In this document: one piece after another, positions 61,077 to 61,504 of the stretch
How the letters are laid out: the number at the start of each line of letters is the position of its first letter
Position numbering within the stretch: position 1 is the first letter of the stretch
Origin: Escherichia coli O157:H7
GTDB taxonomy: Bacteria > Pseudomonadota > Gammaproteobacteria > Enterobacterales > Enterobacteriaceae
DNA length: 64,000 bases
Assembly: GCF_013167455.1 (NCBI RefSeq)
Contig: NZ_CP038328.1
Reading direction: 5' to 3' (one strand)
Notes under the pieces: generated by a model
The model's database searches: none
Seen by the model: only the letters and a program-made list of their open reading frames with translations
What the model was told of the DNA's origin: nothing
Made by a program: the position numbers and the translations under genes

Positions 61077-61213
61077 CGTGTAATGGCTGCATGAAATAAA
61101 CAATAAAATATAAATAACATTATCAGCCTGCTGACGGCTTGAAGAGAGTCACAGTATCTTGTGCAACATTATTGGAAAGAGTGAGGGGCGAGGTAGCGAA
61201 GCGGAAAAATGTT

Positions 61214-61319
61214 AAAAAAAAGCCCATCGTGGGAGATGGGCAAAGACTACACACAGCAATTCGTTGTTTCACTCAGGGGATTTCCATGCTTATAAATCAA
61301 TATGTTGATTTATAACCGT
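61214..61319 (-). ncRNA. rprA: small regulatory RNA RprA (Hfq-dependent activator of rpoS translation)
   Basis: Minus strand reads ACGGTTATAAATCAACATATTGATTTATAAGCATGGAAATCCCCTGAGTGAAACAACGAATTGCTGTGTGTAGTCTTTGCCCATCTCCCACGATGGGC followed by T8, matching the RprA sequence I recall; intrinsic terminator hairpin cccatctcccacgatggg. Confidence 0.88.
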
Positions 61320-61504
61320 GAGCTAATAGTAGGCATACGGACTTTTTGCGTCGATCAGATTCGTCTCATTAGTTTAAAAACTGTAAAGAATTTGCGACAG
61401 GTACTACCAGCTGAATGGCGGTAAGCAGGAAAATATGGGGAAGAGCAAGCAAATATCAATTAGCGGTGGTTAACAATCAGGCGGCAGAGCCGCCTGATGA
61501 GAAA

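Follow-up and report, generated by a model that had tools for sequence, protein, structure and literature searches.

The rprA locus

The window, a 64,000-nucleotide stretch of contig NZ_CP038328.1 (assembly GCF_013167455.1) of E. coli O157:H7, carries the gene for the small RNA RprA within the 428-bp intergenic region between ydiK and ydiL (61077-61504; Table 1). The original prediction had placed an rprA sRNA between these two genes, and a covariance search of the whole window with Rfam 15 bore this out. The RprA model, RF00034, matched at 61212-61319 (-) with 118.5 bits (gathering score 70; E 1.6e-16), and the match was full length, covering model positions 1-108 of 108 with posterior probabilities that were maximal throughout. 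The rprA gene of K-12 MG1655 (b4431, 106 nt), which is likewise sited between ydiK and ydiL, mapped to 61214-61319, and in O157:H7 genomes that were 100% identical over 60700-62000 the RefSeq label at the same bases is 'antisense sRNA RprA'. The interval originally proposed, 61104-61504, does contain rprA, but the interval as such is intergenic space, bounded by the ydiK stop (61505) and by the TTG with which the longest mechanically called ydiL ORF begins (61103), and the gene takes up only 61214-61319 on the minus strand. The annotated start of ydiL is an ATG at 61076. Both the ORFs and the annotation place ydiK, rprA and ydiL on the minus strand, in agreement with the co-orientation that had been predicted.

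Table 1 Features of the rprA locus and of the RprA-like modules of phages and plasmids.
Feature	Position	Strand	Basis or remark
ydiK (AI-2E family transporter), upstream neighbour	61505..62617	-	ORF and annotation
Perfect 10-bp hairpin ATCAGGCGGC-TCT-GCCGCCTGAT after the ydiK stop	61476..61498	-	read from sequence; not part of rprA
RcsB box TGAGACGAATCTGA (-49 to -36)	61355..61368	-	fits consensus; abuts the -35
Weak -35-like hexamer TCGACG (-35 to -30)	61349..61354	-	read from sequence; 17 nt upstream of the -10
-10 hexamer TACTAT (-12 to -7)	61326..61331	-	read from sequence
rprA gene	61214..61319	-	106-nt primary transcript, +1 = 61319; Rfam match, K-12 b4431 mapping, O157:H7 annotation
5' stem-loop, nt 3-32	61288..61317	-	minimum-free-energy fold, covariation
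Central region, nt 33-71	61249..61287	-	predicted pairing with the rpoS leader
3' module, processed RprA, last 47 nt, nt 60-106	61214..61260	-	published processed form
22-mer AUUGCUGUGUGUAGUCUUUGCC, nt 60-81, seed of the 3' module	61239..61260	-	exact matches across genera
Rho-independent terminator	61214..61241	-	stem-loop 61222-61241, U8 tract 61214-61221
ydiL (YdiL/DUF1870 family), downstream neighbour	60720..61076	-	ORF and annotation
22-mer module, Erwinia phage Ea9-2	L126:2501-2544		exact nt 60-81 plus terminator
22-mer module, E. coli phage vB_EcoM-606R2	L127:2501-2546		exact nt 60-81 plus terminator
22-mer module, phage LLS	L128:2501-2539		exact nt 60-81 plus terminator
22-mer module, P1-like plasmid pJBIWA008_2	L129:2455-2557		exact nt 60-81 plus terminator

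The ydiK-ydiL intergenic region, rprA included, was 100% identical to that of K-12 MG1655. The 4.5 kb around it (59191-63691) differed from K-12 at 48 positions, or about 1%, a rate at which approximately 4.6 differences would be expected in the intergenic region against the 0 that were seen, so that constraint seems to reach past rprA into the spacer before ydiL. A megablast of 60700-62000 found the region in 5424 of the 5426 complete E. coli genomes, and rprA was present at full length and at least 99% identity in 5421 of the 5426. The whole window was collinear with the genome of O157:H7 strain PV15-279 at 99.93-99.98% identity, and the sole structural difference was a copy of IS1203. This element interrupts a chb gene (chitobiose PTS IIA) in PV15-279 and is absent from the window at approximately 12321-12326.

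No sequence evidence contrary to the canonical identity of rprA was found, and 61214-61319 (-) is almost certainly the canonical E. coli rprA, encoding a 106-nt, Hfq-dependent, trans-acting sRNA. RprA has been a textbook sRNA since 2001-2002, and the gene described here is an already known and ordinary one: by sequence comparison, its RNA and control region are the same as those of the studied K-12 copy, without a single difference, in a host background that is O157:H7-like and between flanking genes that have diverged by about 1%. We regard the chance that the RF00034 match represents a decayed or non-functional copy as practically nil, since the match is full length and top scoring, the gene is conserved at the level given above across E. 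coli, and identity to the functional K-12 gene refutes such a reading, for which no supporting point was found.

The statement that rprA is the only recognisable non-coding RNA gene in the window did not hold. Although it is the only RNA gene in the window that RefSeq annotates, and the window contains no tRNAs, Rfam also reported STnc540, ES036 (CssrF) and the Phe leader at gathering threshold. The STnc540 match at 36378-36536 (+), which is unannotated in RefSeq, scored 67.4 bits (gathering score 38). On the ihfA strand, it takes in approximately the last 59 nt of that gene together with ihfA-btuC spacer sequence, and because of this same-strand overlap with the end of ihfA it looks like an sRNA derived from a 3' end. 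The ES036 match at 8483-8525 (-), also unannotated in RefSeq, scored 42.9 bits (gathering score 37.6); mapped onto the O157 record, it falls in the spacer between nadE and cho and has the orientation of nadE. The Phe leader (the pheM attenuator of pheST) at 32414-32538 (+) scored 75 bits and is a leader region in RefSeq.

The neighbourhood had further been described as otherwise metabolic and uncharacterised, a description that overlooks katE, osmE, spy, ydiV and cedA, all of which are carried in the window. Expression of katE and osmE is RpoS-dependent, and spy encodes an envelope-stress chaperone; rprA is thus not the sole link between this stretch of DNA and the RcsB/RpoS envelope-stress circuits.

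The rprA promoter and RcsB box

The promoter region had been expected in the 3' flank of ydiK, at 61320-61400, and the -10 hexamer, the -35-like hexamer and an RcsB box were all found inside it, with the box lying at 61355-61368 upstream of 61319. The box sequence, TGAGACGAATCTGA, fits the consensus TN(G/A)GAN4TC(T/C)NA that was defined by Huesa et al. 2021 (PMC7913699). In that work, DNA of the Salmonella rprA promoter was co-crystallised with RcsB (PMC7913699). The 14-bp core of the box in the window is the same as in the crystallised Salmonella PrprA DNA, and over the 21 native positions of the crystallised oligonucleotide one base differs from the window, outside the box (PMC7913699). The RcsB pattern occurred 3 times across the whole window against 2.45 expected, which is no enrichment, and the argument for the box is therefore carried by its position and identity rather than by the pattern alone.

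The promoter was placed by reference to the +1, the -10 hexamer and the RcsB box. Its hexamers match 8 of 12 consensus positions, under the cut-off of 9 used in the consensus promoter scan, which is why the scan did not list it; a match of this quality fits an activator-dependent promoter. The sole sigma-70 consensus match in the intergenic region was a candidate site at 61430-61459 (-), readable as TTGATA-16-CATATT or TTGATA-18-TATTTT, which lies on the rprA strand approximately 110-140 nt upstream of the rprA +1.

Architecture of the RNA

The minimum-free-energy fold of RprA begins with a long 5' hairpin (nt 3-32), which a middle with little structure separates from the terminator hairpin (nt 79-98) and its U8 tail. 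Both the fold and the terminator scan indicated that the three-stem-loop architecture with a Rho-independent terminator and U tail is present, although the fold as a whole was only modestly more stable than those of shuffled sequences (z = -1.99). The terminator was called by the scan with a 7-bp stem containing 5 GC pairs, plus a T-run.

Helix conservation was assessed in a set of 99 distinct homologues. Covariation supported the terminator and the 5' stem-loop. In the terminator helix, pairing was 99.3% and both sides had changed at 3 pairs. Both-side changes occurred at 7 of the 9 pairs of the 5' stem-loop, where 75.8% of cells were paired, a value lowered by misaligned distant taxa. A small helix within nt 60-74 never varied, which is uninformative since the 22-mer was the search key. 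The 5' stem-loop has been proposed as the duplex that is recognised by RNase E (PMC6202311), which frees a short form of RprA corresponding to its last 47 nt (PMC9262595, PMC6202311). The processed RNA has been reported as RprA60-105 (PMC3465796) and as the last 47 nt (PMC9262595).

Conservation across the Enterobacterales

An exact-match scan with RprA nt 60-81 against 100,044 species genomes yielded at least 120 loci from 42 genera of the Enterobacterales, which among the matches listed ranged from Escherichia to Yersinia, Proteus, Photorhabdus, Pantoea and Arsenophonus. Since every locus was collected by exact match, the 22-mer is necessarily invariant in this set, and its recurrence shows breadth, not rate of change. 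RF00034 still recognised the genes of Yersinia, Rahnella, Dickeya, Providencia and Pantoea at 70-89 bits; its threshold was not reached in Photorhabdus, Proteus, Serratia oryzae, Hafnia, Edwardsiella and others.

Of 116 loci among those listed, 112 had an RcsB box in the 170 nt preceding the 22-mer, against a background in the same loci of 0.021 pattern matches expected per 157 positions. The sequence TANNNT followed exactly 23 nt after the box, as it does in the window, for 106 of 114 boxes in the listed loci of other species. For the boxes with this spacing, the distance from box to 22-mer varied from 85 to 134 nt in the loci listed, indicating that the 5' part of RprA changes in length and sequence and that the 3' part is kept. 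A pattern of 3' conservation and 5' divergence in RprA, and an Rcs box in Erwinia, were reported earlier by Peng et al. (PMC7814967).

In 99 of 102 Enterobacterales loci among those listed (L005-L124), a ydiK homologue in the same orientation was present no more than 1 kb upstream. This linkage could mean that the element is a mere 3' end or terminator of the ydiK transcript, from which an RprA-like RNA would arise by processing of read-through, with no promoter of its own. The hairpin that follows the ydiK stop is compatible with such read-through, as it has no T-run after it and was not called by the terminator scan, and so is the situation in Edwardsiella, where the 3' module is kept after ydiK without an RcsB box. 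We nevertheless consider this origin scarcely credible, because the -10 and the RcsB box are correctly spaced from the annotated +1, because this promoter architecture is conserved across the loci listed, and because RcsB-dependent transcription has been published for the identical K-12 gene (PMC3465796, PMC7913699). In the Edwardsiella genomes concerned, E. ictaluri and E. hoshinae (L024, L027), the 22-mer and terminator lie downstream of ydiK and no RcsB box was present within 170 nt upstream of the 22-mer; L024, when scanned with RF00034, was under the gathering score. Judged from these sequences, the 5' half of RprA and its control appear to differ in Edwardsiella.

A ydiL homologue was found downstream in only 9 of 107 loci among those listed, so the adjacency of rprA and ydiL is lineage-specific. 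One locus labelled E. coli (L065) had no ydiL homologue within approximately 1.4 kb downstream. That RprA acts in cis on ydiL or ydiK would offer an explanation for its fixed position, and both the conserved ydiK-rprA adjacency and the identity between O157 and K-12 of the intergenic region (and with it of the 137-nt rprA-ydiL spacer) amid flanks diverged by about 1% could be read in its favour. Such an effect is nonetheless highly improbable, given that the ydiL adjacency is unconserved, that a strong terminator ends rprA, and that the documented targets of RprA are all in trans. RprA acts in trans, and the present comparison gave no sign of a functional tie between rprA and ydiK or ydiL beyond the conserved adjacency to ydiK.

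Predicted pairing with rpoS and csgD

The middle of RprA, which is unstructured, was scanned in windows for pairing with rpoS. The best duplex, between RprA nt 33-71 and positions -134 to -94 of the K-12 rpoS leader, had an energy of -32.4 kcal/mol, which is not significant by itself because 7 of 100 shuffles were as good. This duplex coincides with the published anti-antisense site (PMC3465796, PMC7547250). RNAduplex applied to full-length RprA and a 567-nt rpoS leader predicted an interaction of 99 nt, which is unrealistic and did not surpass those of shuffles; this calculation was dropped.

Repression by RprA has been reported for csgD and ydaM (PMC3465796), hdeD (PMC5861431) and narP (PMC9262595). 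RprA nt 60-74 formed 15 consecutive pairs with positions -98 to -84 of the csgD 5'UTR, a pairing that corresponds to csgD site I of Mika et al. (PMC3465796). The energy of the 22-mer with csgD was -25.0 kcal/mol, compared to -13.6 +/- 2.3 for shuffled sequences, none of which (0/500) was as good.

Because rprA and its control region are identical to those of K-12, the published mechanism would be expected to apply. Envelope stress would switch on the RcsC/D/B phosphorelay, and phospho-RcsB would bind the rprA box and activate transcription (PMC3465796, PMC7913699). The centre of RprA (approximately nt 30-70) would then pair with the upstream arm of the self-inhibitory rpoS leader, opening it for translation (PMC3465796, PMC7547250), and may also pair with translation-initiation regions, among them csgD site II, hdeD and narP. 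Cleavage by RNase E would release the last 47 nt of RprA, and the 3' part, from nt 60 onward, may pair with site I of the csgD 5'UTR and help repress this curli and biofilm regulator. For the O157:H7 gene, we infer this scheme of Rcs induction, rpoS and csgD pairing and RNase E processing from work on the identical K-12 and near-identical Salmonella genes; Hfq binding, processing to the form of about 47 nt and Rcs induction are known for the identical K-12 RNA (PMC3465796, PMC9262595, PMC6202311).

The gene in the window shares with the K-12 (b4431) and Salmonella RprA genes its location after ydiK, the RcsB box core of the crystallised Salmonella promoter, and its terminator. Like RprA, DsrA and ArcZ are Hfq-dependent activators of rpoS translation, and they too bind the upstream arm of the leader's inhibitory stem (PMC7547250); a short 3' form produced by processing is also reported for ArcZ (PMC9262595). 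They differ from RprA in having unrelated sequences, loci and input signals, and the Rfam search found neither of them in the window.

RprA-like modules in phages and plasmids

When RprA was compared with plasmid and phage collections, the matches spanned only nt ~52-107. The exact 22-mer, followed by a variable hairpin and a T-run, was found in at least 120 IMG/VR viral contigs (L130-L249). Among the matches listed, a hairpin and T-run followed the 22-mer in 118 of 121 viral copies, with 40 different hairpin sequences. The module was also present in the temperate E. coli phages LLS, Eeyore and Flotzy and the vB_EcoM-606R2 group, as well as in N4-like Erwinia phages and P1-like phage-plasmids; phage P1 itself had no copy. 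These modules correspond to 61214-61260 of the window. The phage and plasmid copies lack the 5' half of RprA and, save for a few exceptions, the RcsB box. The phage copies scored 40.8-63.4 bits on RF00034, below its gathering score of 70, and matched no other Rfam family. Rfam holds no separate family for the modules.

Within phage genomes, the module usually begins the early-left operon, 270-640 nt downstream of a CI-like repressor gene, and a CI-like repressor (phrog_4) on the same strand was the nearest upstream ORF at 62 viral loci among the matches listed. In LLS, the module is located between the repressor gene and the first early-left gene, approximately 330 nt downstream of a promoter-like site that is flanked by palindromic repeats. 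In Ea9-2 it falls within a 49-nt gap immediately after the thymidylate synthase gene. A second scan, anchored on a leader motif that lies upstream, gave 121 matches, of which 39 had the exact 22-mer and 34 had a 15-nt core, GCTGTGTGTAGTCTT, with different downstream sequence. In all eight inspected examples of this variant class, a longer hairpin and then a T-run followed the core.

The possibility that the modules are attachment sites was considered and, for phage LLS, rejected. In LLS, 5.4 kb separates the module from the annotated attP and integrase, and among the matches listed none of the 121 viral copies carried the canonical middle region of RprA directly upstream of the 22-mer. N4-like Erwinia phages are strictly lytic, which also counts against an attachment site.

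In E. coli, RprA matched at 6041 places in 5424 records, which amounts to approximately 617 extra partial matches; the canonical rprA copy was the only one in the O157:H7 genome nearest to the window. Second RprA-like copies away from ydiK were seen in Phytobacter massiliensis (L050:1165-1284), Enterobacter wuhouensis (L088) and a Citrobacter MAG (L108). The Phytobacter copy, a duplicate of RprA nt ~38-106, is approximately 8 kb from the canonical gene (L049:814-921) and approximately 500 nt from a C4 antisense RNA match; it could be part of an island integrated at rprA, a case in which an attachment site is still conceivable. The sequence upstream of the Enterobacter wuhouensis copy is nearly identical to the phage LLS leader.

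Discussion

The rprA gene in this O157:H7 genome serves as a positive control, in that the identification, strand and promoter placement of the original prediction, and the checks put forward with it, proved sound. The wider comparison adds context to a known gene: the RcsB box, its 23-nt spacing and the linkage to ydiK hold across 42 genera, and the 5' half of the RNA diverges.

The occurrence of the RprA 3' module in plasmids and in many phages, where it tends to lie beside the immunity region, is an observation, which we record as a lead rather than as a result. One tentative interpretation, and not the most probable outcome in our judgement, is that the 3' third of RprA is a regulatory module that has been copied by phages, which would thereby make a mimic of the RprA seed that may act on targets of processed RprA, such as csgD, to whose 5'UTR site I the core of the module is complementary. 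The nearest published analogue is StxS, a Shiga-toxin-phage sRNA that is formed by termination just downstream of a phage promoter, copies a function of core sRNAs including RprA, namely rpoS activation, and pairs with the rpoS leader where RprA, DsrA and ArcZ also bind (PMC7547250). Unlike StxS, the phage modules carry the 3' 22-mer of RprA, without the RprA 5' half. Our literature search found nothing specific on RprA-like, mimic or phage-encoded versions of RprA, though a prior description may exist. If the modules are expressed mimics, phages would tap the output of an envelope-stress sRNA, for example by lowering csgD and curli.
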